A stretch of 64,000 nt of DNA from an uncultured Gammaproteobacteria bacterium (GTDB taxonomy: Bacteria > Patescibacteriota > Patescibacteriia > UBA11705). The position numbers and the translations under genes were made by a program. The stretch is taken from contig CAZQEI010000002.1 in NCBI GenBank assembly GCA_964592195.1, forward strand, positions 77,240-141,239. The letters are read 5' to 3'. Positions 40,941 to 64,000 of the stretch are shown piece by piece (within the stretch, counting starts at the first letter, position 1; every line of letters starts with the position of its first letter). The notes beneath the pieces are model-generated. The model was not told the origin of the DNA, did no database searches, and was given only the letters and a program-made list of their open reading frames with translations.

Positions 40941-40984
40941 AGAGATTGCCACGGCCCCCGCCAGCGGGGTCCTCGCAAAAGAGT
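40941..40984 (+). repeat. GAGATTGCCACG-hairpin-CTCGCAAAAGAG element, copy C
   Basis: agagattgccacg-gcccccgccagcggggtc-ctcgcaaaagag; stem changed to ccccg/cgggg. Confidence 0.85.
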
Positions 40985-41365: not shown

Positions 41366-41368
41366 ATA

Positions 41369-41403
41369 ATTACGAATTTACGAATCTGTTACGAATGTGT
41401 ACG
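41369..41403 (+). repeat. 35-nt direct repeat (right copy) flanking the NTase cassette
   Basis: Identical to 40121..40155. Confidence 0.9.
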
Positions 41404-41463
41404 CCATATCATTCGATATGGCTGTCATGTCGAATGACATGACGAATTATTAATGTGGAATAA

Positions 41464-42264
41464 TTATTTATTAACAATGGTTTGTCGTTTATTTTTAATG
41501 TGATGATAAACAAACCAAGTGCCGGCGATCAACAATAGGACGGCAACGGTGATGGTGAAATATTCGGTATAATGACGAACCGTGGCCCAATTTTTTCCAA
41601 GGATCCAACCAAGGTAAGTTAAAAACGAATTCCACAGAGTTGCGCCAATTAAAGTATAAACAATAAATTTACTTAACTTCATTTTCCCCATACCAGCAGG
41701 CAAAGAAATCAAATGACGAACAATAGGGATGAAACGGCTTATAAAAATAGTTCGCTCCCCTCTTCGAGCAAACCAATGTTCAGTTTTTTGTAAATCTGTG
41801 GCATCCAACAAAAAGTATTTCCCAAATTTATTTACAAAGCGATGGCCGCCGTAATAACCAATATAATAGGAAAATAAGGAACCGATAATGCTTCCTATTG
41901 AGCTAAATAATATTACCAGCCAAACATTTAAGTTACCCTGAACAGCAAGAAATCCGGCGAAGGGCATGACTAATTCTGACGGCACAGGAAAGATCATGCT
42001 TTCCATTATCATTAACAATAAAACTCCTGGGTAACCAAGGTATTCAATAATGCTTGAGATTAATTGACCGGCGTGAGTAAGAGATTGGATAAGGAGGGAA
42101 AGCCAGTTGGGGGGTAAGAAATAAAAAAAGAAAACAAGAAAGCAAAAAAGCAAGGCAACACCTGTAAGAGGAACTGATTTTCGCGTAGGACGAGGCCAAA
42201 CGCGCCATGGACCACTAGGTCGTTGGCGAAAAAAAGAAATAAATGAGTTTAGATGTTTTTTCAT
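41464..42264 (-). CDS. DedA/SNARE-associated family membrane protein
   Basis: 266 aa; LLLMIMESMIFPVPSELVMPFAGF matches the DedA core motif. Confidence 0.6.
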   Translation of the reverse strand: MKKHLNSFISFFRQRPSGPWRVWPRPTRKSVPLTGVALLFCFLVFFFYFLPPNWLSLLIQSLTHAGQLISSIIEYLGYPGVLLLMIMESMIFPVPSELVMPFAGFLAVQGNLNVWLVILFSSIGSIIGSLFSYYIGYYGGHRFVNKFGKYFLLDATDLQKTEHWFARRGERTIFISRFIPIVRHLISLPAGMGKMKLSKFIVYTLIGATLWNSFLTYLGWILGKNWATVRHYTEYFTITVAVLLLIAGTWFVYHHIKNKRQTIVNK

Positions 42265-51360: not shown

Positions 51361-51366
51361 CGGGAA
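51335..51366. repeat. TCCCG/CGGGA double-hairpin element (copy 2), forming the uvrB C-terminus and stop
   Basis: gtcccgcaaaacgggatcccgcctagcggga encodes ...SPAKRDPA*. Confidence 0.8.
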
Positions 51367-51529
51367 AAGCAATAAAGCAAAAAACAATTCCATACTACGG
51401 AAAAGATGGATTGGAATTAAGAATTAGGAATTAAGGGGAAAAGGATTAGCGACTAGGGACTAGGAATTAGGTATGAGGTATGTTGGATGAGGTACTGGCG
51501 GCTAGGGGCATGGGATGATTGACTTAATT

Positions 51530-51570
51530 GAGATTGCCACGTCCCGATAAATCGGGACTCGCAAAAGAGG
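51530..51570 (+). repeat. GAGATTGCCACG-hairpin-CTCGCAAAAGAG element, copy E
   Basis: gagattgccacg-tcccgataaatcggga-ctcgcaaaagagg; followed by TTGACA-17-TAAGAT. Confidence 0.85.
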
Positions 51571-51660
51571 TAGTCTAAAAAATTGACAAAGACGGTGGAA
51601 TTAAATAAGATAAAGCCAAGTTCTTTAGCAACCAATAACCACAAACCAAAGGAGATCTTC

Positions 51661-52230
51661 ATGAGTGATGAAGGAAAACAAGAAAAACATACATTATCCA
51701 TTGCCCAAATATTTCAGTTCGAAGGTGCTTCTCGATTGAAAAATCCAAGATCAAATAAACAAGAAGCGGCTAACGTGTTGAAAATTGGGAAAGAAATCAA
51801 GCGACGCCAACGATTGGCGGAAAAGATTTCTAAACGAATTGAAAGAATGACCAGATCGCTACGCAATGAATTGTTCGAAGTGCAACAAGATATTGCCAAG
51901 TTGAATCAGCTTCAAATGTTAGCCACGAAAAAAACGTTCGCGACTTTTAAGGAACTACTCGAAGCTTGTTTCCCGGAGCATACGATCGTTCAAGATGGCG
52001 CAAGCTACTACGCCGATGAAGTAAAGCCAGAAAATTTTATTGCCAAGGATGAAAAAAATTACTTCATGAATTTCACTTATCACTACTGTCCGCATTGCGG
52101 TTATGTAGTGGGAGCGGCGAGGGAACAAAAGTTTGATGATATCGAATTACTGTCCGGCAGTGCTGGAAAACATTATTTTTGCAGTTTGTGTGATAGACAA
52201 ATTCACACTGAGACGTTTGTTCAAAGTTAA
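51661..52230 (+). CDS. hypothetical protein with C-terminal zinc ribbon
   Basis: AAGGAG RBS 7 nt before the ATG at 51661 (the ORF track opens earlier at 51583); basic coiled-coil region; CPHCG...CSLC. Confidence 0.45.
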   Translation: MSDEGKQEKHTLSIAQIFQFEGASRLKNPRSNKQEAANVLKIGKEIKRRQRLAEKISKRIERMTRSLRNELFEVQQDIAKLNQLQMLATKKTFATFKELLEACFPEHTIVQDGASYYADEVKPENFIAKDEKNYFMNFTYHYCPHCGYVVGAAREQKFDDIELLSGSAGKHYFCSLCDRQIHTETFVQS

Positions 52231-52237
52231 AAAATAA

Positions 52238-52263
52238 TTCTAGGGGAAAACCCTAGTTTTTTA
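52238..52263 (+). terminator. rho-independent terminator
   Basis: ctagggg-aaaa-ccctag hairpin followed by ttttttatt. Confidence 0.8.
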
Positions 52264-52413
52264 TTACCAATATACTGATTAATTACCCCGAAGGTGGCCA
52301 TTTGGGACTGATTTTACACCTGCCGACAGGCAAGGATTGTTCCGGATATTTAAAATTAAATTAATACAGAACTGCAAAAAAACAAAAAACAGGAGTAATA
52401 TCCTGTTGTTTAA

Positions 52414-52992
52414 TTATACCGGGAACCACTGATTCATCTTGCGAGCAATAGCGCACAAATTTTGTAAGACAACTTCTTTCTCGTTGATCAATTGGAATCT
52501 GATTTTGTAATCACCTTCTTCGATCAGCTCACCACCTTCGATTAATGGCACTGCAAATCGTCTTAAATAATTCATATCACCGCAAAACCGACGATGATAA
52601 TTAATGACTTTCGGACTCTCAGTCAAGCTCATTAATTCTATAGATACATTGATAGTCAGTGTATGTATCAGTTTTCTCTCATCTGTTTCAGCCTTCACTT
52701 CAACAATAATTATTTTGCCCAGCAAATCAACATAGTCGGTATATTGCTGGCATCCAAGATCTTCGGCCGAATAAATAGCGGGAAAACCAAATTCGTTATC
52801 ACACAAATAACGTTTATCGAAATCTTGAAGAGTGTAAAAACCCAAATGTCCGACTACAAATCGCTGTTCAAAAAATTTTACCAATTCAGCGACATCAACC
52901 GGACAATAATGTTCGTGGGAAATACAAACATTTTCATCCTCAAATGTCATGTCGCACTTATTACAGAGGTGGACGACCTTTTTATTGGGCAT
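52414..52992 (-). CDS. hypothetical protein with N-terminal zinc-finger-like motif
   Basis: 192 aa; CNKCDMTFEDENVCISHEHYC. Confidence 0.4.
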   Translation of the reverse strand: MPNKKVVHLCNKCDMTFEDENVCISHEHYCPVDVAELVKFFEQRFVVGHLGFYTLQDFDKRYLCDNEFGFPAIYSAEDLGCQQYTDYVDLLGKIIIVEVKAETDERKLIHTLTINVSIELMSLTESPKVINYHRRFCGDMNYLRRFAVPLIEGGELIEEGDYKIRFQLINEKEVVLQNLCAIARKMNQWFPV

Positions 52993-53115
52993 GGTTTATG
53001 TCCTTTGTTAATGAGCAAGGGTATCTTATAGTTAAAAAAACAAAAAAGCAAGAAAACAAGAAAGCAAAAAAATAAAAAAACAATACAGGGCTACCGATGC
53101 TACTGATATTTATTT

Positions 53116-53154
53116 GAGATTGCCACGTCCCGCTTTGCGGGACTCGCAAAAGAG
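53116..53154 (+). repeat. GAGATTGCCACG-hairpin-CTCGCAAAAGAG element, copy F
   Basis: gagattgccacg-tcccgctttgcggga-ctcgcaaaagag. Confidence 0.85.
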
Positions 53155-53219
53155 TGAAAATAGGAAAATACACCCCTTGGAATAATAAAAAAAATCCCGA
53201 GATTATCGGGATGATTTAA

Positions 53220-54026
53220 TTAGAGCAATTGATGGGACAAAGGAACGTAGGTAAGAACGAGGAAACAGTTGGTCATTTTGAATTCTTCATTGGAGAAAAT
53301 GTTGGGATTATCAATCAATGCTTGATTGGTTTCGTTTCGGAAGTGATGTTCGTCAGCATAAATATCATGAGCCACGATCTTTTTCCAATTGTCATTGATT
53401 AAAGTATTGGCCATAACACTAAACACTCGAGCAAAAGATTCAACCTTATCACCCAGACTCTCTTCAATCATTTGTTCAAGGTTGCCTGAGGCAACCTCAA
53501 ACTTTGCTTCCAAAGCAATATCCACTCCCCTATTTTCAATCACAATTCTACCCAGAGAAACGTTGCAATTGAAACTGGAAGACAACGAAATCGTTTCGGA
53601 AATCAAGTTTTGATCAACAATAGTACCTTCTTCATACAAATAGACCAATCGTTTATGCGAATCGATAATACCAACTCGAGTCTTGTTTTCATCTTCGAAC
53701 TTCAATGCCACTAACTTATAAGTACACCCAATGAGAAACATGGCTGTAAACACTACGGCAACAACACTGATTATGATAAAGACAGACGAGGACGCAAAGG
53801 CAAAAAATGAAATATATCTGGACAACCTCAAGATTAAGACAATAACCCATACCAGGATGACCCAGACTATCAGTTTTGGCATATACTTCTCAAATATATT
53901 CCCCGCATGAGTGGAACGAGAAAGCTGAGTATATATTTCAGCCGCTTTAACTTCCGTCACCGGTTCATAACTTCCGATAGCTACGATGGTATCAGGCATG
54001 CGAGCCTCCTTTTTCCTGTGATTCAA
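53220..54026 (-). CDS. membrane protein (two TM helices plus C-terminal soluble domain)
   Basis: 268 aa; overlaps the upstream gene by 35 nt. Confidence 0.4.
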   Translation of the reverse strand: MNHRKKEARMPDTIVAIGSYEPVTEVKAAEIYTQLSRSTHAGNIFEKYMPKLIVWVILVWVIVLILRLSRYISFFAFASSSVFIIISVVAVVFTAMFLIGCTYKLVALKFEDENKTRVGIIDSHKRLVYLYEEGTIVDQNLISETISLSSSFNCNVSLGRIVIENRGVDIALEAKFEVASGNLEQMIEESLGDKVESFARVFSVMANTLINDNWKKIVAHDIYADEHHFRNETNQALIDNPNIFSNEEFKMTNCFLVLTYVPLSHQLL

Positions 54027-54714
54027 TTTTCTTCAAAGTGAGAACCATCCCCTTCTGACTCAGACATTCGAAAATGCGACGGCTCAGATTGTTCTGCTTA
54101 TCGAAATATTCCTGGTCAAAATTAGCCGACTTCACTCTCTCCACCGATAATGAGTGAATGGCTTTCATGTCCGCCAACAGATCATCGGGAAAGAATCCTT
54201 CAGTATTCTTCAGATGATTAAAATCATACAAGTGATTAAAAACCGAATACATAATTGAAGTAATCAGATGTTCCTGGCTTTCAACATTAGCACGAATTAC
54301 ATCAGTAGCATTTGCCATTCTACACGGGATAATTGGTACCTGAATTTTCTGACCCGGCTCAAACAAACAGGCGGGAATAATCTGACCCAAGAACAAATGT
54401 TTATCTTGCAACTGACTCAAAAAACCCAGAATTGCTTCATGAAGCTCTGCTTCACTCGGATATCTAATTAACTGAATAAATAGATCACACATTCCGCTAT
54501 GAGGATCGCTAGGATAAGTTTTGTAGCCAATAGTTCCCACTTGATCGCCATCAGCATCGACAACAATCGCGCGATGATTCTTTTCCCGGTCATAATCATG
54601 CATGTCTGCCAGAGCAAACCAATCCAAGGCATCGAATGGGATACCTGCGAGCTCAAATAGTGTTAACCCATTTTTTTCAATGACTTTGATCTCGACATGA
54701 CCAAGGTCGGGCAT
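53992..54714 (-). CDS. hypothetical protein
   Basis: 240 aa; AGGAGA RBS upstream; no recognisable motif. Confidence 0.4.
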   Translation of the reverse strand: MPDLGHVEIKVIEKNGLTLFELAGIPFDALDWFALADMHDYDREKNHRAIVVDADGDQVGTIGYKTYPSDPHSGMCDLFIQLIRYPSEAELHEAILGFLSQLQDKHLFLGQIIPACLFEPGQKIQVPIIPCRMANATDVIRANVESQEHLITSIMYSVFNHLYDFNHLKNTEGFFPDDLLADMKAIHSLSVERVKSANFDQEYFDKQNNLSRRIFECLSQKGMVLTLKKIESQEKGGSHA

Positions 54715-54771
54715 GGGGGTCTCCTGTTGATGGGTTTTGGTAACTGGGTGCTGGAAGCGAGAGAAAGAAAG

Positions 54772-54801
54772 CCCGCCAGAGGCGGATCAGCCTCCGGCTG
54801 A
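54772..54801. repeat. 30-nt double-hairpin element (CGCC-aga-GGCG + CAGCC-tcc-GGCTG), copy 4
   Basis: cccgccagaggcggatcagcctccggctga; other copies at 14394..14422, 14463..14492 and 16103..16132 (the tRNA-embedded ones). Confidence 0.8.
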
Positions 54802-54928
54802 CAAGAAAACAAATAACTGATTGTCAAAGGACTGATGAATTTAACATATTTGATAGGGAAAGTCAAAAAGAAATAGCGAACAGCGATTAGCGGTAAGCGC
54901 ATAGGGTTGAAAACTAGCAAGGATAGCA

Positions 54929-54975
54929 GTGTCGCCCTTCGAGGGTTTGCTCATCGCAAACCACCTCAGGGTGAC
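54929..54975. promoter_or_regulatory. long imperfect palindrome ending 9 nt before a TTGACA-17-TAATAT promoter
   Basis: tgtcgcccttcgagggtttg-ctcatcgc-caaaccacctcagggtgaca; second copy at 56963..57014. Confidence 0.65.
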
Positions 54976-54984
54976 ATTATATAA

Positions 54985-55013
54985 TTGACAATAAGGCAAA
55001 GGTATATTAATAT
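54985..55013 (+). promoter_or_regulatory. sigma-70-like promoter (TTGACA-17-TAATAT)
   Basis: attgaca-ataaggcaaaggtatat-taatat upstream of 55082..55963. Confidence 0.5.
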
Positions 55014-55081
55014 GCAATATTGCCTGTAAATTGACAAATGAACCAACAACAACAACGCCGTGAAGGCGTGGAGGAGGTCGC

Positions 55082-55963
55082 ATGAGTCCACGATTTGCGA
55101 TTACGACGGACGTACACTTGGATCGAGAGGTTATTGATGTTTTGACGACCAAACCTGAAGAGGTGTCATTTGAAACACTTTTGGCTAAGGCGAATGAAGT
55201 ACTGACCAGTTTATTGAAGAGTCATGCGTTCAAAGAATATCTCAAAACTTGTGAAAAAGGGCAACAATCTAATGATGTGAATTTATTTCTCGATGGTTGG
55301 GGAAATAGAATGGTGATTCGTGATGACCAAATACAAATCTTTAAAGCTGGGAAAATTTTACCACTGAAGACAGAGGCAGATCTTATCGATTTTGAAGACA
55401 CCGCTGATCTACTCATTGCCTTGCGACAACTGCAAACAGTCAGTACCTTTATTCGACGTGTTCAATTTTGTGGCCATGGCGTATTAAACATGAGGATGGT
55501 TGAAAGTTGGAAAAAGGAAATGTTTAGGAATGGTGAGATTCGGATTGCCGGAGTTAGTATGAACACTAGTAGTGTTAACAATGTATCTCATGAACTAATG
55601 CACCGATTGCATAAAATGCAGTTCACGCCCAGCATGGCGAGTTATAATACTATTTCCATTGATGACCAACATTCGCTACTTAATTTCGTCAAATACGCTG
55701 AGGATAAAAATATTCCCTACTTAGTAATCTTTGACCTGTGGCCGAGCGATGCCTTGGCTATCAATATGTTGTTCAATCGTTTTTCTGATTCGCAACGAAG
55801 ACATGTTTTTGCATTGTATCACCTCACTAAAGAGACGGTAAAGCAAGATGGTTATGACCCGGAGCTGGTAAACAAGGTTAACATCGACGATCTCGTTGGT
55901 TGGGATAATAATCATTTGTTGGGTCTGGTGGAAGAAATGAACCCCGAAAAGCAGGAGGGTTAA
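55082..55963 (+). CDS. hypothetical protein with HExxH-like motif (paralog 1 of a tandem pair)
   Basis: 293 aa; GGAGGAGG RBS; VSHELMHRLH; N-terminal TTDVHLDREVIDVL and central KANEVL blocks shared with the next ORF. Confidence 0.45.
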   Translation: MSPRFAITTDVHLDREVIDVLTTKPEEVSFETLLAKANEVLTSLLKSHAFKEYLKTCEKGQQSNDVNLFLDGWGNRMVIRDDQIQIFKAGKILPLKTEADLIDFEDTADLLIALRQLQTVSTFIRRVQFCGHGVLNMRMVESWKKEMFRNGEIRIAGVSMNTSSVNNVSHELMHRLHKMQFTPSMASYNTISIDDQHSLLNFVKYAEDKNIPYLVIFDLWPSDALAINMLFNRFSDSQRRHVFALYHLTKETVKQDGYDPELVNKVNIDDLVGWDNNHLLGLVEEMNPEKQEG

Positions 55964-56857
55964 ATGAGCCGACCGAAAATTCAACAAACAACTGATGTTG
56001 TGATCGACAATGTTTTGCGAGAAATTCTTTTTCCGAAAAAGCAAAACAGAGAACCGCAATCATTACTACGTCTATGGTTTAAGGCAAATGAAGTTTTTGG
56101 AAAACTAACAAACAGCAAATTTTTCGTTCAAATCCTGGAAAATTGTCGACAATCTCTAGAATCTGATGACATAAGAATTTGTTTGGAAGAACCATACGGT
56201 GTAAATATTACTATCAAAAATACTTTGGAATTGATCCATTGGCCTGAATTGACTTGTCCGTTTATTACAATTACGGATCTTTCAACGATTAAAGAGTTTG
56301 AACACATTGATTCCCTATGTAAGCTTCTGGAGCAATGGCAAACAACTGAAAGTTTCTTCAGATATTTCTGCAATATGTTCATTCCCAGAATTGATTTTAC
56401 TGAAGATGATATGTTGAATGAAGCGATAGTCAATGGGGTAATTCATGTGATTACTATTTACCCTAAAGAGGAAAGCCCTCAAATTAAATCTAGAGTTTGG
56501 GAATTGATTGATAGGCTTAAGGCATTGCAATTCAAGGTTTTTGATCGGGGAATCTTTACCTCAGTTTCCACACCGGAAGTTTTCAAAGCTTTTGTTAACG
56601 AGATTAAAGCAGCAGGACATAATTATATAATCGTTTTTGACACAACGCCGTCTGGCGCGAAGGAACTCAATCCGTATTGCAATGCCCTCGAGGAAGCTAA
56701 GGATATTCTCCATATGATTTGTCACTGGGGAGATAAAGAGCCAAACCGAAACTGTGGCTATCCTAAATGGTTAGTGACTGGTCCGGATCTCAAAAAGATT
56801 CTCTTTATGAATGATTTTGAATATAGTCTGTTCATTGAAGATATGGACAAACCGTAA
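55964..56857 (+). CDS. hypothetical protein (paralog 2, no HExxH)
   Basis: 297 aa; ATG follows the upstream stop with no intergenic gap; TTDVVIDNVLREIL, KANEVF, YIIVFDTTPSGA correspond to blocks in paralog 1. Confidence 0.45.
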   Translation: MSRPKIQQTTDVVIDNVLREILFPKKQNREPQSLLRLWFKANEVFGKLTNSKFFVQILENCRQSLESDDIRICLEEPYGVNITIKNTLELIHWPELTCPFITITDLSTIKEFEHIDSLCKLLEQWQTTESFFRYFCNMFIPRIDFTEDDMLNEAIVNGVIHVITIYPKEESPQIKSRVWELIDRLKALQFKVFDRGIFTSVSTPEVFKAFVNEIKAAGHNYIIVFDTTPSGAKELNPYCNALEEAKDILHMICHWGDKEPNRNCGYPKWLVTGPDLKKILFMNDFEYSLFIEDMDKP

Positions 56858-56962
56858 AAATTTAACAGCTGGAAATCGGCTGTTTTTTCATTACGGATAT
56901 ACGGATTTGTTACCGATATTACCGATTTTACTGATTACTGAGGTGGGAGCGATGGATGGGAT

Positions 56963-57014
56963 TGTCGCCCCTCGAGGGTTTTGTCCTTTGGTCAAAACCA
57001 CCTCGGGGTGACAA
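56963..57014. promoter_or_regulatory. long imperfect palindrome (second copy) ending 8 nt before a TTGACA-17-TAAATT promoter
   Basis: ttgtcgcccctcgagggttttg-tcctttggt-caaaaccacctcggggtgacaa; both arms carry the same extra T relative to copy 1. Confidence 0.65.
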
Positions 57015-57022
57015 TTTGCGCA

Positions 57023-57051
57023 TTGACAAAAATGGCAAAATTGGATAAATT
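57023..57051 (+). promoter_or_regulatory. sigma-70-like promoter (TTGACA-17-TAAATT)
   Basis: ttgaca-aaaatggcaaaattgga-taaatt upstream of the HAD gene. Confidence 0.5.
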
Positions 57052-57095
57052 AATTATTACAAACTGTTCTTTCAATCCAACAAAAAGGAGAGAGG

Positions 57096-57920
57096 ATGCG
57101 TAAAAGCGACGCGATAAAGCTGGTGGTTTCTGATTTGGATGGAACGATGGTGGGTGATGGGTTTCCTTTGGAAGCGAACATTGCAGAGCTGTACAGGTTG
57201 AAAAATCTGGGAATCAAAACTACCATTGCCACCGGTCGTCCCTTCCCTATCGCGATAAAAGCGTTCAACACTGATTGTCTCACTGGCCCGTTAATTCTGG
57301 ATAATGGAGCACTGATTACTGAACTGGATGGTCAACCAATTTACTACAAAGTGGTGCCGCAACAAACGATTGACTATGTTTTGTCAGTTGCCAATCATCC
57401 GCTAGTTGGGATTGTGGCGTTTGTGCCATTGGACGGGAATCATACTATTCATCAATATGTGGCTGATCGCGATGAAGCGAAAAGAATGAATGAACTTTAC
57501 CATTGGGCGGAAAGAGTCACTACTTATGATTTGAATCAATTGCGTGTTTGGTTAACGACTATGCGAACCAGTAAAGTGGTGGTGGTTTTGCCGAAGCATT
57601 TCCCTGAATTACCAACTCCCCCTGATTCAATTTGCCACTGCAATAGTTTGTTCGGAACGACGAGATGCTATGACATCATGGCTGGAGAAGTTGACAAGGG
57701 TCAAGCAGTCATGAGAATTACAAGTCTCTTGCATTTGGAATTATCTAATGTTGCAGTAATTGGAAATGATCCGAATGACCGTGGCATGTTCAAATTGCCC
57801 CAAGTCAAAAAGATTTTTGTTCGTGGTAGTGCGAATGTGGTGGATGATTTGATGAAGATGGCGGATATTGTAGTTAACCCGATGGAGTTGCCTTACTTGT
57901 TGAGACACCTAAGTCATTGA
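57096..57920 (+). CDS. HAD-superfamily hydrolase, Cof-like (subfamily IIB) phosphatase
   Basis: 274 aa; motif I VSDLDGTM, motif IV VIGNDPNDRGMF, cap domain of about 100 aa. Confidence 0.65.
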   Translation: MRKSDAIKLVVSDLDGTMVGDGFPLEANIAELYRLKNLGIKTTIATGRPFPIAIKAFNTDCLTGPLILDNGALITELDGQPIYYKVVPQQTIDYVLSVANHPLVGIVAFVPLDGNHTIHQYVADRDEAKRMNELYHWAERVTTYDLNQLRVWLTTMRTSKVVVVLPKHFPELPTPPDSICHCNSLFGTTRCYDIMAGEVDKGQAVMRITSLLHLELSNVAVIGNDPNDRGMFKLPQVKKIFVRGSANVVDDLMKMADIVVNPMELPYLLRHLSH

Positions 57921-58132
57921 TCAATCGTTGAAATGAAATTCTAAGCACTAAATCCCAAATTCTAAAGTTGGAATATTATTTAAAAAAAACGAAAGCTCAA
58001 AGAACAAAAAACCATCAAACGATGGTCTTTTTATTTATGCAAAAATTTATGATACTAGATCCACCACTGATCAATTACTATTCTTTTCTGGGTCTGGGGT
58101 GAAAGGAATGGATAGGATGGTTTTTAAACAAT

Positions 58133-58534
58133 TTAATTGATCGCTTTCATGGTGTATTGGGCAGTGATTTTTTGGAGTCGGTCGAGATGTTCGTTTTCCA
58201 AATTTTCCAAGGTGGAATAGAAAGATTCGTAGATAACAGTTTTTTGTTTAATATCAAACGGGTCAATTTTACGTAAACTTTTTTGTAATGCTTCATCAGC
58301 CTGAGCTTTGCGATCTTCGATTTCATTTTCCAATTTAACAATTTCATTATCAAAAGCAAGAACCAAATCATTGTATTGTTCACCGCGACGAGAAAGTTCG
58401 TCGGCCAACAGTTCATCAAAACGATGATAAAACTCATCAGTTTCTCCGACACTATTCAACAAACCGACTAATTCAATTTTATCCTTATCATTAAGAAAAG
58501 ATGATTGTATAAGTGTAATTAATTCGTTATTCAT
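58133..58534 (-). CDS. hypothetical coiled-coil protein
   Basis: Start moved to the MNNELIT Met at 58534, 4 nt after the upstream stop; the ORF-track start at 58627 would overlap the upstream gene by 89 nt. Confidence 0.35.
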   Translation of the reverse strand: MNNELITLIQSSFLNDKDKIELVGLLNSVGETDEFYHRFDELLADELSRRGEQYNDLVLAFDNEIVKLENEIEDRKAQADEALQKSLRKIDPFDIKQKTVIYESFYSTLENLENEHLDRLQKITAQYTMKAIN

Positions 58535-58538
58535 ATAA

Positions 58539-59441
58539 TTATCTTTTAGCTGGGTGATGAGTAATTTTACTGTTAGCTCGACGGGATTGAGCCGCATGGT
58601 ATCCACTGGCAGGAATATCATACACAACTAATTTCCCAGCCTTCCAGGCTATCAAACCTAAATATTTAGCAATTCCAGTTGCTACATTTCCAATTAACTT
58701 AAATGGTCTTAATGTATTAAACTGTTTTATTAAATCAATTGGTCCTTTCCAAAAAGTATGTGACAATAAATCCCAACCACTGGTTTTAATATTTTCAACA
58801 GCTGAACTACTCAACTTCATTCTTTCAATTCCCTTTTCATGACATTTCATCAAGTCCGTATATTGCATAATCTTTTGCATATCAGCGGCGATTTCAGGAT
58901 GAGTAGTTAAAATAGTTGGGATGTCGTCTCCATTCGCACTCATTTCTGTTTGCAAACGACCAACTATTTCTTGCATATTAGCAACATCTTGAGAGATTTC
59001 ACTAACTCGCATGTCTAATCGATGAGATTTTTTTGATGATTTATCGAAATCAGGAAACTTATCTCCCATCATGGATTGCATATCTTTTTTCACCCCTGAT
59101 CGATATTTATCATCAATGGTCGGCGGAACAAATGGCCTAAAATCATAACTTAAATGCGGATCATTCTCAAGTCCTTTGACATTATTCTTCCCCATTAATA
59201 ACACTTCTAAATCAACCCTAGTTTGTTTCCACCCCTCCGCCTTCGGACCAAAATATCGTCTAGGCAAATGACCTAAGTCTTCCATAAAAACTCTTTTACC
59301 AGCCTCATCTTCATTTATTCTTAATCTGCGAATATGTTCTTTTTGACGTTTTTCAAAAGAAGCTACTCTGGGAGTAAAAATAGACTTAGCCGCATTAGAA
59401 GCCACTTCACCTACTTTATCTAAAAATCCACCTGGAGCCAT
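58539..59441 (-). CDS. hypothetical protein
   Basis: 300 aa; no recognisable motif. Confidence 0.4.
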   Translation of the reverse strand: MAPGGFLDKVGEVASNAAKSIFTPRVASFEKRQKEHIRRLRINEDEAGKRVFMEDLGHLPRRYFGPKAEGWKQTRVDLEVLLMGKNNVKGLENDPHLSYDFRPFVPPTIDDKYRSGVKKDMQSMMGDKFPDFDKSSKKSHRLDMRVSEISQDVANMQEIVGRLQTEMSANGDDIPTILTTHPEIAADMQKIMQYTDLMKCHEKGIERMKLSSSAVENIKTSGWDLLSHTFWKGPIDLIKQFNTLRPFKLIGNVATGIAKYLGLIAWKAGKLVVYDIPASGYHAAQSRRANSKITHHPAKR

Positions 59442-59620
59442 ATTTTTGTATATTAACTATATTTATATTATAACACAATTTTAAGAATAAAGCAAGATTA
59501 GCGATTAAACTTTAGAGAGTTGGAATTATGAATTAAGAATTAAGGGATTAACAACTAAATATCACTGACGATATTATACCATATTTTGATAAAATAAAAA
59601 AATTGCGCAGAATTACGCAA

Positions 59621-59908
59621 TTATTGATAGTCAATTTTCCATTCGAAAACACCTTGGTAGGTGGCGCGCTGGATACACAGTGGGTTAATTGAAAAACCTC
59701 TTTTTACCAAAGCATTCACAATAGCTCCAGCTAAAGTGGCAGATACTCCCCTTTTATAAGCGCAAAAAACCATTCGTTCTTCTAAGGCAGTTAATTCCAA
59801 ACGAACACAACATTCATCATTTTCCAGTAACTGTCTAGTAATTTTTTCTCCAATGTCTACGGTACTTAAATTCAGTAATTTCAACGGGCGACCGTTTAGG
59901 ATGGCCAT
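59621..59908 (-). CDS. hypothetical small protein
   Basis: 95 aa. Confidence 0.35.
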   Translation of the reverse strand: MAILNGRPLKLLNLSTVDIGEKITRQLLENDECCVRLELTALEERMVFCAYKRGVSATLAGAIVNALVKRGFSINPLCIQRATYQGVFEWKIDYQ

Positions 59909-60039
59909 TCTGTTCTCCTTAGGGTTGTAGTTGAATTACTGATCTACGGATTACTACGGATACTACAGATAAGACATCAAATAAATGAACTAATACGAAT
60001 ATATTAGATTATTATAGCGAGATAAGCAAGTTCCGCAGA

Positions 60040-60062
60040 GACGGGATCCCGCCTAGCGGGAA
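60040..60062. repeat. TCCCGC-cta-GCGGGA hairpin element (copy 3, truncated)
   Basis: gacgggatcccgcctagcgggaa. Confidence 0.7.
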
Positions 60063-60114
60063 AAGCGAGATCAGCGAGATAAGTATTGAATATTATTAAA
60101 ATAAAAAATTATTA

Positions 60115-60143
60115 TCAAAAAAGTCCCCAGCGATATGGGGACA
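60115..60143 (-). terminator. rho-independent terminator (gtcccc-N8-ggggac with T-run on the minus strand)
   Basis: aaaaaagtccccagcgatatggggac; the same hairpin recurs at 61145..61172 and 63001..63025. Confidence 0.7.
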
Positions 60144-60172
60144 GTCTTTCATTTTTAATAAGTCGTATTCAA

Positions 60173-60976
60173 CTAGTTATCTTCACGTTTCTCCAAACCC
60201 TGGATCCTGCCTGTAGGTCGGAAACCACCGCGAAGATCTTCAGACGGTCCTAGATGGTAGCATTTAGGTTCATCTTCACACTCTTCGTTGAGTTCATTCC
60301 AAATCATCTTACCGCGACAGCGACACTCCGCTTTCTTGGTGTCCCAAGTAGCACCTGGGCAACGAGGTTCACACAATTCCCGAGATGTCGACCACTTGGT
60401 AGACGGATCTTTGCAACGAGATTCACACATCAATGATTTCCCGTTAAAAATCTCACTTTGCAAACACTTCGCCGGCCTCGAATAGTCAGCCTTCTTCAAG
60501 TCGATCAGTTCCTGAACAGACAAACAAAGCTTGTATTCAGAGGAAAAGACCTTTCCCTGTTCGCACTCGCAAGAATTGGTCGTCTCTACATATTGCTGCG
60601 CTGCCGGACAAATCTCGTGGCACTTATCATGTTGCCAAGTAAAACCTGCTTTACAAACAGAAACGCAAGATTTGGTTCCCGAATCCCACTTCTTACCTTC
60701 AGTAGAATGGCACAGAGGAATACAAAGATTTACATTATCCTGCATCATATCTGGCCTAAATCCCTCACGACATGTCGGCCGACATTGACCGCTGGAACCG
60801 TGATAAGAATCATTATAAGCATAGTATGTCTGACCTTCAGGACACTTTCTGAGAGATGCACGATAGTCTGAATTCATCTTATTCAGCTCATCCACCACGG
60901 ATCTATCATAGTAATAACCACCAGCGCACTGGCTCATGACCATGAGAGAGACGATCAGGACAAGGTGACGTAGCAT
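60173..60976 (-). CDS. secreted Cys-rich protein (EGF/furin-like Cys repeats), GC-rich gene
   Basis: 267 aa; signal peptide MLRHLVLIVSLMVMSQCAG; more than 30 Cys in C-x-x-G-x-x-[WY]-like repeats; AAGGAGG RBS; local GC about 50%. Confidence 0.55.
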   Translation of the reverse strand: MLRHLVLIVSLMVMSQCAGGYYYDRSVVDELNKMNSDYRASLRKCPEGQTYYAYNDSYHGSSGQCRPTCREGFRPDMMQDNVNLCIPLCHSTEGKKWDSGTKSCVSVCKAGFTWQHDKCHEICPAAQQYVETTNSCECEQGKVFSSEYKLCLSVQELIDLKKADYSRPAKCLQSEIFNGKSLMCESRCKDPSTKWSTSRELCEPRCPGATWDTKKAECRCRGKMIWNELNEECEDEPKCYHLGPSEDLRGGFRPTGRIQGLEKREDN

Positions 60977-61079
60977 GGGGACCTCCTTGGCCGTCAGGCC
61001 GTCAGTTGGGGATGTGCCGAGCCTGAGAAACGGAAAACATCACTAAAACACGTTAAATTTTCAAGTTACAAGACACATA

Positions 61080-61108
61080 ATTATAGCACATACTTATAAT
61101 AAAGTCAA
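61080..61108 (-). promoter_or_regulatory. consensus sigma-70 promoter TTGACT-17-TGTGCTATAAT
   Basis: Minus strand reads ttgact-ttattataagtatgtgc-tataat; lies within a ~100-nt cassette repeated at 62888..62990. Confidence 0.7.
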
Positions 61109-61144
61109 TCATTTTGTATAATATTTTGCTTATTTTAAATGTAA

Positions 61145-61172
61145 ACAAAAAAGTCCCCAGCGATATGGGGAC
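61145..61172 (-). terminator. rho-independent terminator (same hairpin family)
   Basis: aaaaaagtccccagcgatatggggac downstream of 61221..62285. Confidence 0.7.
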
Positions 61173-61220
61173 TCCCTTTCAAGGTAGTTAAACAATTAAG
61201 AACAGGATCAGAACGACAAG

Positions 61221-62285
61221 CTACTTCGGGACACAGGTGTCGGTAGCGTCGTCGTACTTGCCGTTCGGGCAGGGCGGTTCTTCATGAGAGCACAGCTCGT
61301 AGACCGCGATGCCCTGGTCCTCTTCGACCTGGCAGAGGAACTCGCGGATACAGCTGGTCGAAAACCGAGCAACACGACACATCGCGAGTCCACCATCTTC
61401 CGTCAGATTGAAAGAGATACTACGGTACCCCTCCCAAACCGGGAAATCCCACCTAGTGACGAAATCCGTCTGGTTGTCGTAGGTCAGCTTCAGCTTCTTC
61501 CCTCCGAGGAACGCCCACACGGTGCGACCGTTCACGACCACGAACTTGTAGGCGCTGAGGCCGTTCATGTTCGGCCAAGCCTCATAGGACGGGCTGGCCG
61601 CGTTCGCGAACGCCGTGACCGTCGGGTGGGAGGTGTCGAGCCTCCTGAGGTTCTTGATGTACCGGAAGCCCTCGACGTCCTCGTCGCAGACCTTGTAGAT
61701 CTGGACGGAGTTGTCCCACATGCGGCTGACGGCGCACAAATCGGTGTTCATCGCGCCGAACGAACCGTGGAACCGGCCCTTGAAGTTCTTCTGGTACGAG
61801 AACTTCAGGTTGTGCTCATCGATTACCTCGGGGTTGGACTCCTTGAGGGAAGGATCAACGGAGTTGTAGGACGCGGTCCAGATGACCACGTCGGACAAGC
61901 CCTTGAACACCGGCAAGTAGGCCCTGCCGCCCTCTTGTTCATCATCGTAGAACCTGGCCTTGACCCCCTTGCTGGGGAGGTAGACCCAGAGCTCTTCGCC
62001 GTTCACGAGGACGAACTGGTAGTCGGCGATGTCGAGCGACTCGGTCCAGACCTTGTAGTAGACTTCCTTCGCGATCAGGAAGTCACCGACCTTGGGGTAC
62101 TTCTGGTACCGGCAGTCGTCGAGGCCGGGCCACGAGTCGGTGTCGCCGCAGAAGCCGTCATGGTCCGGATCGGACTGGCCTTCCTGGCAGATGCCGAGCA
62201 TGCACAGACCGGCGGTGGCGACGGACGGGAACGAGAGCGCCACGAGCGCGAGCACCAGAGCCGAGAACAGGGAGCGACGCAGCAT
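61221..62285 (-). CDS. secreted protein with internal duplicated module, high-GC gene
   Basis: Start set at MLRRSLFSALVLALVALSFPSVATA (signal peptide), preceded by ggccAAGGAGGtcccc identical to the RBS context of 60173..60976; two copies of an IYKVCDEDVEGFRY / AVYELC module; GC about 60%. Confidence 0.55.
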   Translation of the reverse strand: MLRRSLFSALVLALVALSFPSVATAGLCMLGICQEGQSDPDHDGFCGDTDSWPGLDDCRYQKYPKVGDFLIAKEVYYKVWTESLDIADYQFVLVNGEELWVYLPSKGVKARFYDDEQEGGRAYLPVFKGLSDVVIWTASYNSVDPSLKESNPEVIDEHNLKFSYQKNFKGRFHGSFGAMNTDLCAVSRMWDNSVQIYKVCDEDVEGFRYIKNLRRLDTSHPTVTAFANAASPSYEAWPNMNGLSAYKFVVVNGRTVWAFLGGKKLKLTYDNQTDFVTRWDFPVWEGYRSISFNLTEDGGLAMCRVARFSTSCIREFLCQVEEDQGIAVYELCSHEEPPCPNGKYDDATDTCVPK

Positions 62286-62361
62286 GGGGACCTCCTTGGC
62301 CACAAAGGCCGTGTGTGGGGACACCAGCAACCACTAAATTGATTACTGGAATAATTCACAC

Positions 62362-62829
62362 TTAGAATTCCTGACACACAAAGCAACCTCGATCCTCATT
62401 CTTTGTTTTATACATGCGACAACCAAGACGAGGTGTATTCAATAATCGATAGCTTTCATCCGCAATCTGCTGATGCCAGGGTTTACGAAAATGTTCATTC
62501 ACGTCGTAAACATATTGTTCTTGTTCTTTCGAACTGCAAACAACAGAAAACTGCTTACCAGATATATTTCTCCATTTGGTAAAAGCCCCATTTGCATGAC
62601 TGACTCCATATTCTTCAACTGCGGCATAAAAAATATTATAATCACGATCATCCTCAAGGGTGCCCCAACAATCAGCTACCAAGTCAGCCAGGGCTTCTGA
62701 CATAACATGATCACGCTGGATATCCAGAGCATCATATTCCGATGGGGAATTACAGGCCTGATTGCTATTTTCCAGTGGAGCAGAACAACCCAGAAGAAGA
62801 ACGAACAGCACCAACCATGACAATCGCAT
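62362..62829 (-). CDS. putative lipoprotein
   Basis: Start at MRLSWLVLFVLLLGCSAP (lipobox LLGC) with AAGGAGG RBS; 155 aa; directly upstream of 61221..62285. Confidence 0.45.
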   Translation of the reverse strand: MRLSWLVLFVLLLGCSAPLENSNQACNSPSEYDALDIQRDHVMSEALADLVADCWGTLEDDRDYNIFYAAVEEYGVSHANGAFTKWRNISGKQFSVVCSSKEQEQYVYDVNEHFRKPWHQQIADESYRLLNTPRLGCRMYKTKNEDRGCFVCQEF

Positions 62830-62931
62830 GTTGACCTCCTTAGCCTGATGGCTAGAGTTGAGTAGGTTTAGGATCCTAGAGAACAAAAATGTCACTAAAA
62901 CACGTTAAATTTTCAAGTTACAAGACACATA

Positions 62932-62960
62932 ATTATAGCACATACTTATAATAAAGTCAA
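62932..62960 (-). promoter_or_regulatory. consensus sigma-70 promoter TTGACT-17-TGTGCTATAAT (second copy)
   Basis: Identical to the promoter at 61080..61108. Confidence 0.7.
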
Positions 62961-63000
62961 TCACTCCGTACTAAATTTTGCTTATTTTAAACAATAATTT

Positions 63001-63025
63001 AAAAAGTCCCCAGAGATACGGGGAC
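63001..63025 (-). terminator. rho-independent terminator (gtcccca-gagatac-ggggac)
   Basis: Third copy of the hairpin terminator, downstream of 63074..63681. Confidence 0.65.
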
Positions 63026-63073
63026 TTCCTTTCAATGTAGTTTATCAATTACGAACAGGAGAGGGACGGCGAG

Positions 63074-63681
63074 CTACTTCGTCTCGGGGGGAGGAAGCGG
63101 CTCGTCGTAGCACTCGACCGGCAGGGACGCGTAGTACTCGAAGACCTTGAGATCCTCCTGGCAGACCTCGTAGATCTCGACACCTTCGCGACTGGCGACC
63201 GAACACATCTGGAGGTTGGTCTGCCCGATCTCCGATCGACCGCAGTTGTGGGTCTTGCGGTAGGTCATGAGGACCTTGCCAGGCTCGGGGTTGAACTCGA
63301 TGGTATTGACCCCGACGAAGACCGGGAGCACGAAGATCGTCTCGTCTGCCCGCCTCTGGTCGACCGGGATCACGAACGACATGAGGCCCACGTTGAACCA
63401 CATGCGCTCGCCGCCGTCGGTGACGACGAGGTTGAGCTCGCCGAGTCGCCGGTTGATCTCGTCGTTGCCCTTGGGCCACTCGCCCTTGGCGGAGATCTGG
63501 AACAGGCACACGATGTCACCGGCCTCACAAGCCGGGGGGAGAGAGATCTCTCCTTTCGGCCCGATGATGGCCAGCCCCCCACACTTGGCGGCGGGGGTGA
63601 AGGCCACCCACACCGTCACGAACAGTGCCGCGAGCATCGCACCCAGGGTCAGAGCCTTTTCCTTGCGCGAATAGATCTTCA
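63074..63681 (-). CDS. secreted or membrane-anchored protein, paralog of the C-terminal module of 61221..62285, high-GC gene
   Basis: Start at MKIYSRKEK with cgAAGGAGGattgg RBS; N-terminal TM/signal LTLGAMLAALFVTVWVAF; C-terminal IYEVCQEDLKVFEY matches IYKVCDEDVEGFRY; GC about 60%. Confidence 0.5.
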
Positions 63682-63834
63682 TCCAATCCTCCTTCGTCCA
63701 GCGACCAAACGCCAGACATTGCGCACCATCTCGAACCAGAACCAGCACTGCCTGAGAACCAGAGCGCGATGCGATCCCAGCCGAAGCCGGGAGTTATGGA
63801 TTTATTGACGTAAAAGATCAATTACTAACCGTTC

Positions 63835-63863
63835 ATTATAGCATGTTTTATAATAAATGTCAA
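63835..63863 (-). promoter_or_regulatory. sigma-70 promoter TTGACA-17-TGCTATAAT (third copy, diverged cassette)
   Basis: Minus strand reads ttgaca-tttattataaaacatgc-tataat. Confidence 0.6.
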
Positions 63864-63920
63864 TGGGTAAAAATGGCAAAATGGCTTATTTTAGATAAAA
63901 ACAAAATATTATACTCACTC

Positions 63921-63958
63921 AGAGATTGCCGCGCCCCGATGCGGGGCTCGCAAAATAG
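63921..63958 (+). repeat. GAGATTGCCGCG-hairpin-CTCGCAAAA element, copy G
   Basis: agagattgccgcg-ccccgatgcgggg-ctcgcaaaatagg; stem switched to ccccg/cgggg. Confidence 0.85.
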
Positions 63959-64000
63959 GTAGCATTTTTCAGCCGACTGCCAACCTTCGCTGAAGCTTCG

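Follow-up and report, generated by a model that had tools for sequence, protein, structure and literature searches.

A chromosomal islet of three putative, strongly promoted units encoding predicted exported proteins, with GC-rich genes in an AT-rich genome

Four genes and their predicted products

The islet of interest spans 3.8 kb of a bacterial chromosome of low GC and lies near the right end of the window, i.e. the whole stretch of 64,000 nucleotides that was analysed. It carries four genes, g1 to g4, all of which (4/4) are intact ORFs on the minus strand. The first-pass annotation had listed the same four, though g4 starts at 63682 and not at 63681. The flanking genes encode UvrB, a HAD hydrolase and orphans. 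Directly to the left of the islet lies a native double-hairpin repeat (60030..60066, no strand assigned), of which 60041-60066 is 100% identical to 51345-51370, while the right edge is formed by a native intergenic repeat (63921..63958, also unstranded; GAGATTGCC[AG]CG-hairpin-CTCGCAAAA) with further copies at 39121, 40938, 51526 and 53112.

The g1 gene (60173..60976, minus strand; GC 0.46, GC3 0.45) encodes a 267 aa protein that displays an N-terminal signal-like segment and 22 regularly spaced cysteines in a repeated C-x1-3-C-x10-15 pattern. This pattern had been read as EGF/furin-like; the spacing is regular, yet no EGF or furin model matches, and the assignment is not supported, with 0 Pfam/NCBIfam matches at E<=0.01. 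The sole profile listed for g1 was DUF5874, with an E of 0.012 that is under its cut-off, the PDB sequence search gave no match, the homologue search recovered only g1 itself and the predicted structure model (pLDDT 42) is too low for use. The g2 gene (61221..62285, minus strand; GC 0.60, GC3 0.86) encodes a 354 aa protein with an AxA-type (Sec-type) signal peptide and two tandem copies of a ~140-aa Cys-containing beta domain, and g4 (63074..63682, minus strand; GC 0.63, GC3 0.88) a 202 aa protein with an N-terminal signal/anchor segment and a single copy of the same type of domain. The module previously noticed in both products thus extends across the whole ~140-aa domain (E ~3e-6, ~28% identity between g2 and g4), while the N- and C-terminal halves of g2 match each other with an E of 4e-9. 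Finally, g3 (62362..62829, minus strand; GC 0.42, GC3 0.34) encodes a 155 aa lipoprotein candidate with 7 Cys. Its N terminus, MRLSWLVLFVLLLGC-SAP, has a signal peptide ending in a lipobox of the form L-[ASL]-[GA]-C, with LLGC read from the sequence at residues 12-15 and Cys15 as its cysteine. An exact second copy of g3 lies on a 711-bp contig of GCA_041443045.1.

As proposed earlier, the four products look like signal-peptide or lipobox proteins exported across the membrane, g2 by its signal peptide, g3 by LLGC, and g1 and g4 by hydrophobic N-terminal segments read directly in their translations. These four Cys-containing proteins would cross the membrane via Sec, g3 as a lipoprotein and g1, g2 and g4 in secreted or anchored form. 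Their most likely role is that of binding proteins, secreted or at the surface, which contact a partner or host. Across 5.8 billion clusters and 1.84 billion representatives, the only credible relative of g1, g2 or g4 was a single g2 homologue (P0009/L001, hereafter L001; 73% aa identity), which comes from a different run and sample; g4 has no homologue outside the islet. In no sampled lineage are g1, g2 and g4 ordinary conserved proteins. The ~140-aa domain is found elsewhere only in L001 among ~1.8 billion representatives and is a new domain family of predicted exported proteins. Comparison of g2 with L001 gave a dN of 0.19, a dS of ~0.55-0.6 and an omega of ~0.33 with 12/12 Cys conserved, values which argue that the genes are real; relative to L001, g2 is evolving under purifying selection. 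In a set of 15 billion sequences, the EF-Tu of the source organism has 0 cluster mates at the 90% identity level, and the g1 to g4 proteins are candidate partner or host contact factors of an unsampled lineage.

Predicted transcription units and a duplicated expression module

The genes are arranged in three predicted transcription units, P-g4-T, P-g3-g2-T and P-g1-T, whose promoters and terminators were assigned as matches to consensus. Each unit begins directly after the terminator of the preceding unit, has a leader of ~100-145 nt and closes with an intrinsic terminator. Homologous AT-rich parts recur in the units: the terminator, an upstream box that is conserved, a promoter of the extended -10 type that is close to perfect and, adjoining AAGGAGG, a hairpin in the leader. 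Promoter copy 1 and its box (61080..61137, minus strand) comprise a -35 element TTGACT at 61103-61108, a 17-nt spacer, TGC-TATAAT with the -10 at 61080-61085, and the conserved upstream box TAAAATAAGC at 61128-61137. The g3 leader and copy 2 (62830..62989, minus strand) include the promoter at 62932-62960, the upstream box at 62980-62989 and the Shine-Dalgarno (SD) sequence at 62835-62841. The g4 leader and copy 3 (63683..63893, minus strand) consist of a GC-rich leader of ~145 nt, in which an 8-bp hairpin adjoins the SD at 63688-63694, and, at 63835-63863, the diverged third promoter that had been noticed before (TTGACA-17-TGC-TATAAT, 12/12), with its box at 63884-63893. These promoters, all with TG and a 17-nt spacer, are the top sigma-70 matches of the last 12 kb (12/12, 11/12 and 11/12), and a search of the whole window returned only 9 sites scoring at least 11/12, 3 of them in the islet. 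The expression signals had been called native in style, which is true of their AT-richness and not of their strength, as near-consensus promoters are rare in the window and mostly located upstream of compositionally odd genes.

Downstream of the promoters, AAGGAGG precedes all four genes (4/4), and the context ggccaaggaggtccccATGct is identical in two of them, g1 and g2, as first reported. In the g1 leader (60977..61072, minus strand; ~96 nt, the proximal ~50 nt GC-rich), the hairpin GGCC-TGAC-GGCC (60989-61000) abuts the SD AAGGAGG (60982-60988); in the g3-g2 spacer (62286..62361, minus strand), the hairpin GGCC-N5-GGCC (62298-62310) abuts the SD at 62291-62297; and the g3 leader hairpin AGCC-ATCA-GGCT (62842-62853) is a compensatory variant of both. 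Between the g3-g2 spacer and the proximal part of the L001 leader there is homology (52/76), and no promoter or terminator was found within the spacer. Hairpins placed next to a strong SD are known as 5' stabilisers or insulators in ompA-type leaders and in the Bacillus STAB-SD. The hairpins studied here resemble these in ending 0-1 nt before a perfect AAGGAGG in 5/5 leaders and in the compensatory change from GGCC/GGCC to AGCC/GGCT, but differ in that the stems are of 4 bp in 4/5 leaders and whole-leader folding energies are no better than those of shuffles.

The GTCCCC-N8-GGGGAC terminator, noted earlier as common to all units, was found after g1, g2 and g4 and not after g3, so that g3 and g2 look co-transcribed; with the T-run, 3 such hairpins are observed versus 0 expected by chance. 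T1 (60113..60142, minus strand; z -3.8) follows g1 and reads GTCCCCATATCGCTGGGGAC then TTTTTT. T2 and its 3'UTR element (61147..61220, minus strand) comprise the terminator at 61147-61178, with a 13-bp stem and an A/U extension, and a conserved element of ~40 nt downstream of g2 (61179-61220) that is common to g4 and L001. T3 and the 3'UTR element belonging to g4 occupy 63001..63073 (minus strand), with T3 at 63001-63030. Such a design should yield high, read-through-proof expression. The combination of terminator, upstream box, consensus promoter, hairpin and perfect RBS amounts to a compact natural expression module, which could serve lineages without genetic tools.

The near-identical repeat of about 100 nt already noted measures 106 nt (61034-61139 versus 62886-62991, 92% identity), and homology extends beyond it, across the terminator and the 3'UTR, as far as the final codons of both genes, g2 and g4 (61133-61228 versus 62986-63081, 79%), taking in the last 8 coding nt. 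Amplification, as originally suggested, is seen both in the g2/g4 genes and in the expression module. A unit composed of domain gene, 3'UTR, terminator, promoter and leader would have been duplicated to give g4 and g2, the domain would then have doubled inside g2, and the promoter-leader-SD-start module would have been reused upstream of g1, where the 26 nt covering SD, ATG and first codons show 96% identity with the g2 counterpart. The flanks of g2 and g4 are 79-92% identical and far more alike than the coding parts, so that flank homology cannot date the divergence of the ORFs. When the four proteins were searched against the window by tblastn, only g2 and g4 themselves were recovered and no other paralogous fragments.

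Morons are independent transcription units inserted in prophages, each with a promoter and a terminator of its own and differing in composition from its neighbours (PMC3594210), and the islet units share with them, at the sequence level, an own promoter and factor-independent terminator, predicted autonomous expression, small predicted exported or membrane products and, in g2 and g4, a deviating composition. It is improbable, even so, that the units are moron-type cargo of a prophage or other mobile element rather than proper chromosomal genes. Another unit of the same style, x4791, lies elsewhere in the window, which would suit such cargo; against this, PHROG (10 proteins), Pfam and NCBIfam gave 0 phage or mobility matches in the islet or its neighbours, phage records and viral contigs were without match, and the bracketing repeats recur elsewhere in the chromosome. 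Unlike morons, the islet has no detected phage context in the window up to 64000, its units share one homologous, tandemly duplicated promoter/terminator module, 2/4 genes are not compositionally deviant, and the deviation, apparently a stable one, is toward high GC where the genome itself is low in GC.

Composition of the genes and its apparent stability

A background of 70 other ORFs has a GC of 0.39±0.03 and a GC3 of 0.35±0.07, and EF-Tu and ribosomal protein genes of the same genome a GC3 near 0.3. A GC of 50-65% with G/C-rich third positions had been ascribed to the four genes; it holds for g2 and g4 and not for g1 and g3. Likewise, GC and codon usage deviate strongly in g2 and g4 (codon-usage z -8.0 and -8.9), weakly in g1 (z -2.2) and not in g3, which is native-like (z -0.6).

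Along the islet GC swings abruptly between 20% and 69% over 100 nt, GC skew being small and not marked. Such swings could point to an assembly artefact in which an AT-rich contig was fused with GC-rich reads from a different organism. This reading is close to refuted: there are three rounds of alternation between AT-rich module and GC-rich ORF, with RBS, start codon and terminator falling exactly on the boundaries; an independent Logan assembly from another run is 100% identical over 58668-60443 (1776 bp) and spans the left junction; and L001, from a third dataset, shows the same AT/GC/AT mosaic on one contig. The first-pass annotation had likewise argued against a chimera. L001 indeed shares the design, with an AT-rich promoter, a GGCC hairpin and AAGGAGG, a GC-rich ORF (GC3 0.864) and an identical terminator.

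The same annotation had suggested recent acquisition, possibly from a high-GC bacterium or a eukaryote, and amplification with native-style expression signals; on this view the genes would now be drifting toward the AT content of the host. In favour of this proposal, g2 and g4 deviate extremely in GC3 and codon usage, and their codon choice (GTC, GGC, ACC, CTC/CTG, AAG, GAG) resembles that of high-GC bacteria; the GC-rich leaders could have come along with the genes, and the occurrence of g3 in a very large assembly, there on a small contig, hints at a host-associated organism. However, 0 donors or other homologues were found in the clusters and representatives searched, and the amino acid composition of g2 and g4 (R/(R+K) 0.45; fraction of G+A+R+P 0.23-0.27) is unlike that of a high-GC proteome. 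No integrase, tRNA target or direct-repeat border was seen in the islet or its left flank, the window ending at the right border. In addition, the AT-rich flanks are common to g2 and g4 although identity between the two is only ~28%, which argues that the mosaic is old.

We also compared g2 with L001 at synonymous sites. GC3 is equal in the two genes (0.862 and 0.864), and 42/115 shared four-fold sites differ, with 22 C/G differences, 13 transitions and 7 other transversions; the rate of difference is 0.14-0.17 at two-fold versus 0.365 at four-fold sites. Under an amelioration model in which a GC-rich ancestor decays under the four-fold composition of the source genome, C/G differences should make up <=0.20 of the total, while 0.52 was observed (P<=4e-6, for this one gene pair). 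In native genes of an AT-rich ortholog pair of similar divergence (L010/L017), the C/G share is 8%. Differences between S and W occur at ~17% of four-fold sites and could represent early decay; nevertheless, the dominance of C/G differences together with equal GC3 rejects, for this gene pair, simple ongoing decay toward AT from a single origin in place. It follows that the high GC was either kept up in place or built up ahead of a transfer. Recent acquisition is thus unlikely in our view. The GC-richness of g2 and g4 looks old and stable, not freshly imported: their composition and that of their leaders is foreign to the genome and, by the substitution pattern, appears to be evolving at a GC-rich equilibrium. 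The g2 copies compared may also be paralogues whose divergence took place in a GC-rich donor, ahead of the transfer.

A probably old islet and a possible gene class

Altogether, we consider with moderate confidence that the locus is genuine and forms a chromosomal islet made up of three units, which would be insulated and strongly promoted, encode exported proteins and combine duplicated modules with a stable GC-richness. The origin that we favour is foreign DNA of some age, or else a family specific to the lineage, with its GC held by transcript selection or biased gene conversion. Acquired genomic islands, as in the amelioration model of Lawrence and Ochman, are blocks of atypical GC3 and codon usage carrying accessory surface or secreted proteins. 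The islet is likewise such a local block with predicted surface or secreted products. It differs in that no donor was found (only the relative P0009, with the same AT-rich flanks), that no mobility genes, tRNA or direct-repeat border were seen inside or in the left flank, and that the substitution pattern is not that of amelioration; moreover, DNA of foreign appearance occurs only in ORFs and proximal leaders, alternating with AT-rich regulatory modules. With regard to presence or absence of the islet among close relatives, a metagenome scan with the neighbouring gene as query gave no match. The Borrelia vls locus is a GC-rich surface-lipoprotein locus in a genome of ~28% GC. Similarly, islet genes for predicted surface-exposed proteins keep a much higher GC than their AT-rich genome, but the islet lacks a promoterless silent cassette array, a marked GC skew and other paralogous fragments in the window.

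Should the high GC be maintained in place, the composition of individual genes in a small AT-rich genome would be shaped by something other than genome-wide mutation bias, for example transcript selection or a strong bias of gene conversion, and atypical GC would then be an unreliable sign of recent transfer in such organisms. We know of no force by which a few genes would keep a GC3 of 0.87 when EF-Tu and ribosomal protein genes remain near 0.3. Tentatively, and as a possibility that we rate below even, reduced AT-rich genomes may contain a distinct class of strongly promoted small orphan genes for exported or membrane proteins, whose transcribed region is actively held GC-rich. In such a class GC3 would reach ~0.87 versus ~0.25-0.35 in the rest of the genome, and the mosaic, carried by a portable terminator-promoter-leader module, would outlast both the divergence of g2 from g4 and the separation from the organism that carries L001. 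We also compared loci from candidate-phyla MAGs that had been fetched by promoter sequence only. A GC-raised ORF downstream of the promoter was seen in 0/6 Firmicutes loci. In the candidate-phyla loci, GC3 of the downstream ORF versus the other ORFs was 0.86 versus 0.38 in L009, 0.44-0.45 versus 0.23-0.24 in L010/L017, 0.54 versus 0.25 in L021 and 0.48 versus 0.23 in L022.

Expression modules of the island

The island (60100-63958) is a duplicated self-contained module, predicted to drive high expression and wired to predicted exported orphan proteins. All four ORFs of the first-pass annotation are present on the minus strand, namely g1 (60173-60976, 267 aa), g2 (61221-62285, 354 aa), g3 (62362-62829, 155 aa) and g4 (63074-63682, 202 aa), the boundary of the last having been placed one base short at 63681. 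Along the direction of transcription they are arranged as P3-leader-g4-T3, P2-leader-g3-g2-T2 and P1-leader-g1-T1, where P1-P3 are promoter copies and T1-T3 terminators, while neither a promoter nor a terminator was found in the g3-g2 spacer. The promoters were expected to be near-perfect consensus sites and they are: each displays TTGACA or TTGACT, a 17-nt spacer and TGC-TATAAT, and together they are the top three sigma-70 matches within the last 12 kb and three of the nine sites scoring at least 11/12 across the whole 64 kb. The proposed duplication of an AT-rich cassette is borne out as well, with P1 and P2 lying within two copies of a 106-nt repeat at 92% identity. Leftward in gene orientation, the homology takes in the terminator, a 3'UTR element of ~40 nt and the final 8 coding bases of both g2 and g4, so that the full repeated unit covers 61034-61228 and 62886-63081; P3 resembles the other copies in the promoter itself and in an upstream box, TAAAATAAGC.

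The common terminator noted earlier, GTCCCC-N8-GGGGAC followed by a T-run, is present three times, against a chance expectation of zero, and T1-T3 fold far better than shuffled sequences. Likewise, the AAGGAGG ribosome-binding site precedes all four genes, and in every leader a small hairpin ends beside it (GGCC-N4/5-GGCC for g1 and g2, AGCC-N4-GGCT for g3, an 8-bp stem for g4). The g3 hairpin differs from those of g1 and g2 by a two-sided compensatory change; the folding energies of the whole leaders are no better than those of shuffles. To the right of the island (63960-64000) the GC content rises again to ~50-58%; this stretch may belong to the 3' end of another minus-strand gene truncated by the window edge, in which case the island would continue beyond it.

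The argument that the island is not a chimeric assembly was upheld by three observations. A 1776-bp Logan contig from run SRR12261223 (L024), 100% identical to 58668-60443, runs from the native flank through T1 into the 3' part of g1; on either side the island is bordered by repeats of which further copies exist in the window (60041-60066 and 63921-63958); and the AT/GC/AT mosaic recurs on L001, a Logan contig of 1303 bp that comes from a third dataset (SRR22387796). Altogether, most of the first-pass observation holds and lies well beyond chance, and the architecture is akin to kinds already known. The closest architectural match is the phage moron, which carries its own promoter and terminator and has a GC content unlike that of its neighbours (PMC3594210); the island units each have a predicted promoter and terminator, and the GC deviation is seen for g2 and g4, weakly for g1 and not for g3. 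In contrast to a moron, no phage context was found for the island in phage records, PHROGs or viral contigs. With a classical acquired island it shares an atypical composition, but no donor, mobility genes or amelioration signature were found at the island. The likeness to the vls locus of Borrelia goes no further than the idea of a surface-protein locus that is GC-rich within an AT-rich genome; the island has neither silent cassettes nor marked GC skew.

The encoded proteins and the one relative of g2

Read in translation, g2 starts with a textbook signal peptide (MLRRSLFSALVLALVALSFPSVATA-G) and g3 has a canonical lipobox, LLGC, while in g1 and g4 a hydrophobic segment comes after a positively charged N-terminus. 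The proteins contain 22 (g1), 12 (g2), 7 (g3) and 7 (g4) cysteines. The module said to be common to the second and fourth proteins proved to be a ~140-aa domain, present in two copies in g2 (N-half versus C-half, E 4e-9) and in one copy in g4 (E ~3e-6). The EGF/furin-like repeats ascribed to g1 were not recovered: its cysteines follow a regular C-x1-3-C-x10-15 spacing, yet no EGF, furin or other profile matched. Searches of all four proteins against Pfam, NCBIfam, PHROGs and PDB sequences returned nothing.

A search of 5.8 billion clusters gave g2 a single homologue, P0009, at 73% identity, whereas g4 has none and g1 matched only itself. P0009 was also the sole accepted match when the domain profile was run against 1.84 billion representatives; two further matches were rejected, one as a junk tandem-repeat translation (P0010) and the other as a giant Big_9 (Ig-repeat) adhesin in which only a 45-aa stretch matched, repeatedly (P0011). 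The same profile found nothing in viral contigs. Exact-protein lookups gave no record for g1, g2 or the 300-aa neighbour, and a search of metagenome contigs gave no relatives of the neighbour protein. For g3 such a record exists solely on a 711-bp contig of GCA_041443045.1, where the exact g3 is followed, after the same 76 nt as in the window (62286-62361), by the beginning of a g2-like ORF, a hint that a second copy or a strain variant exists and that the source is host-associated or metagenomic. Literature searches by accession (GCA_041443045, SRR22387796, SRR12261223) returned no papers. At the nucleotide level, a search for near-identical stretches of 50000-64000 in phage records, the terminator pattern against metagenome and viral contigs, and the promoter-leader pattern against viral contigs all yielded nothing.

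P0009 is encoded on L001 by an ORF with a GC3 of 0.864. Upstream of it stands ATTGACTTTATTATAAAAACATGCTATAAT, then a leader ending in GGCC-TTAC-GGCC-AAGGAGG, and on its 3' side are the same 3'UTR element and an identical terminator as for g2. The promoter is directly upstream of the g2 homologue on L001, unlike in the window, where g3 lies between the promoter-proximal and the g2-proximal leader. Between g2 and P0009 all 12 cysteines are conserved, with dN 0.19, dS about 0.55-0.6 and omega about 0.33; g2 is a real gene under purifying selection.

Composition and substitution pattern of the GC-rich genes

The four genes had been described as GC-rich with G/C-rich third positions. When compared to the 70 other ORFs of the window (GC 0.388±0.033, GC3 0.349±0.070), this description fits g2 (GC 0.60, GC3 0.86, codon-usage z -8.0) and g4 (0.63, 0.88, -8.9), applies weakly to g1 (0.46, 0.45, -2.2) and fails for g3 (0.42, 0.34, -0.6). 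At 100-nt resolution, the regulatory modules are at 20-30% GC versus 55-69% for g2, g4 and their proximal leaders. Two of the predicted exported orphan proteins have a very GC-rich coding sequence kept in an AT-rich genome. The amino-acid make-up of g2 and g4 is within about one SD of native proteins, with R/(R+K) of 0.45-0.46 and a G+A+R+P fraction of 0.23-0.27, and is unlike that of a 65% GC proteome.

Whether the GC-richness is actively maintained is a question that could prove interesting, and the g2/P0009 pair bears on it. Of the 115 four-fold sites whose amino acid is unchanged between the two, 42 differ (22 C/G, 11 C/T, 2 A/G and 7 other transversions). Two-fold sites, at which every synonymous change is a swap between G/C and A/T, differ at only 0.14-0.17 versus 0.365 for four-fold sites. 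We modelled decay with HKY, starting from an all-G/C ancestor, with the four-fold composition of this genome (A 0.22, C 0.18, G 0.18, T 0.42) and with the divergence set to that observed. With kappa from 1 to 4 the predicted C/G share is at most 0.20, while the observed share is 0.52 (P 3e-11 to 4e-6 under the decay model). As a yardstick, the native genes of L010 and L017, an AT-rich ortholog pair fetched by chance with a four-fold divergence of ~0.33, have 16 C/G changes among 199 differences (8%). The g2/P0009 spectrum is near the expectation of a stationary process at the present composition, and therefore most of the synonymous divergence arose under a GC-favouring regime. The excess of C/G changes over the model, together with the lack of a donor in the databases, speaks against the recent import from a eukaryote or a high-GC bacterium that had been put forward.

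Two readings of this regime were weighed. High GC may be maintained in place through selection at the transcript level or biased gene conversion; with a single gene pair to go on, we only lean to this explanation, at somewhat below even chances. Against it, no known force acts in this way, EF-Tu and ribosomal protein genes here have a GC3 near 0.3, and the similarity of the g2 and g4 flanks shows that such flanks can stay alike or be homogenised separately from the ORFs. Alternatively, the copies could have split inside a GC-rich donor before transfer, as paralogues or separate imports. We consider this less likely, with the rest of the probability assigned to neither. Against it, the databases hold no donor, the amino-acid composition of g2 and g4 is not of a GC type, and AT-rich 3'UTR, terminator and promoter flanks are common to g2, g4 and L001 despite an identity of only ~28% between g2 and g4.

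Similar units, genomic setting and intergenic repeats

A fifth unit of the same style, self-contained and with its own terminator, lies at 4745-5540 (minus strand). Its promoter scores 12/12 and carries TG (at 5510); after a leader of ~60 nt comes the gene for a multi-pass membrane orphan of 202 aa (4791-5399, minus strand; GC 0.50, GC3 0.68, codon z -5.4). A degenerate promoter pattern run against a genome collection returned 22 generic consensus promoters from other low-GC genomes, with no true copies of the module and without the window's own genome. Five candidate-phyla MAG loci (L009, L010, L017, L021, L022) were fetched solely for a near-perfect promoter, and in each the first ORF past it encodes a small orphan, a membrane protein or lipoprotein, whose GC3 is raised: 0.86 in L009 (4454-5600; mean of other ORFs 0.38), 0.44-0.45 in L010 and L017 (0.23-0.24), 0.54 in L021 (0.25) and 0.48 in L022 (3637-4300; 0.23). 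None of six Firmicutes loci had a raised GC3 in the downstream ORF. In L009, the leader and first codons (N-terminus) are duplicated before two successive GC-rich ORFs, comparable to g1 and g2. This small survey, not designed as a test, suggests that promoter-linked raised GC3 may be general. A tblastx comparison of the window with the fetched loci was uninformative.

The window GC is ~37-40% up to 60 kb and 45-56% over the last 4 kb. It encodes an S10/spc ribosomal protein cluster with SecY, EF-G and EF-Tu, in addition to ArgRS, ValRS, UvrB and four tRNA genes, including tRNA-Ile(UAU). The lineage is poorly sampled, since EF-Tu, SecY, EF-G and UvrB each lack a cluster mate at 90% identity. 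L30 is absent between S5 and L15; from this, the tRNA-Ile(UAU) and the many orphan genes, it is only a guess that the organism is candidate-phyla-like. ValRS (9658-12870, minus strand) has a complete histidine-phosphatase domain (His_Phos_1) inserted at residues 463-633, within the catalytic domain. Beside the true tRNA-Val(GAC) and tRNA-Val(CAC) genes are two tRNA-Val-derived elements (14376-14500 and 16022-16150), each a copy of the adjoining tRNA with ~20-30-nt hairpin inserts in the D-loop and T-loop (for example CGCCAAAGGCG + CAGCCTNNGGCTG), the second with the 3' terminus ...GCGCCCACCA; neither ARAGORN nor Rfam called them. Two genes at 2702-3310 and 3376-3984 (both minus strand) appear to be tandem paralogues; their ~200-aa products bear signal peptides, share the Cys motifs CCKMKY/CCRMDY ... 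FEC/FNC and have no Pfam match, and their composition is native.

Several intergenic repeats were also observed. The family GAGATTGCC[AG]CG-hairpin-CTCGCAAAA has five members (39121-39161, 40938-40978, 51526-51566, 53112-53152, 63921-63958) in which the flanks are kept and the hairpin stems vary compensatorily between copies; it has no match in Rfam. Another repeat, a double hairpin (GTCCCGC..GGGATCCCGCCTAGCGGGA), occupies gaps between convergent or successive genes at 39045-39108, 51324-51387 and 60030-60066, with 60041-60066 being 100% identical over 26 nt to 51345-51370, 8.7 kb apart. Finally, 8-nt-periodic repeats form several families, AAGAAAGC/AAGAAAAC, TACGAATN/TACGGATN and TGATCATT, found at 42112-42160, 51134-51190 and 53026-53090; at 40121-40166, 41368-41413, 56889-56934 and ~59930-59970; and at 7325-7357, 37147-37194 and 37255-37302. 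They often separate the start codon of a native gene from a -10-like box; most of these native genes have no recognisable -35.
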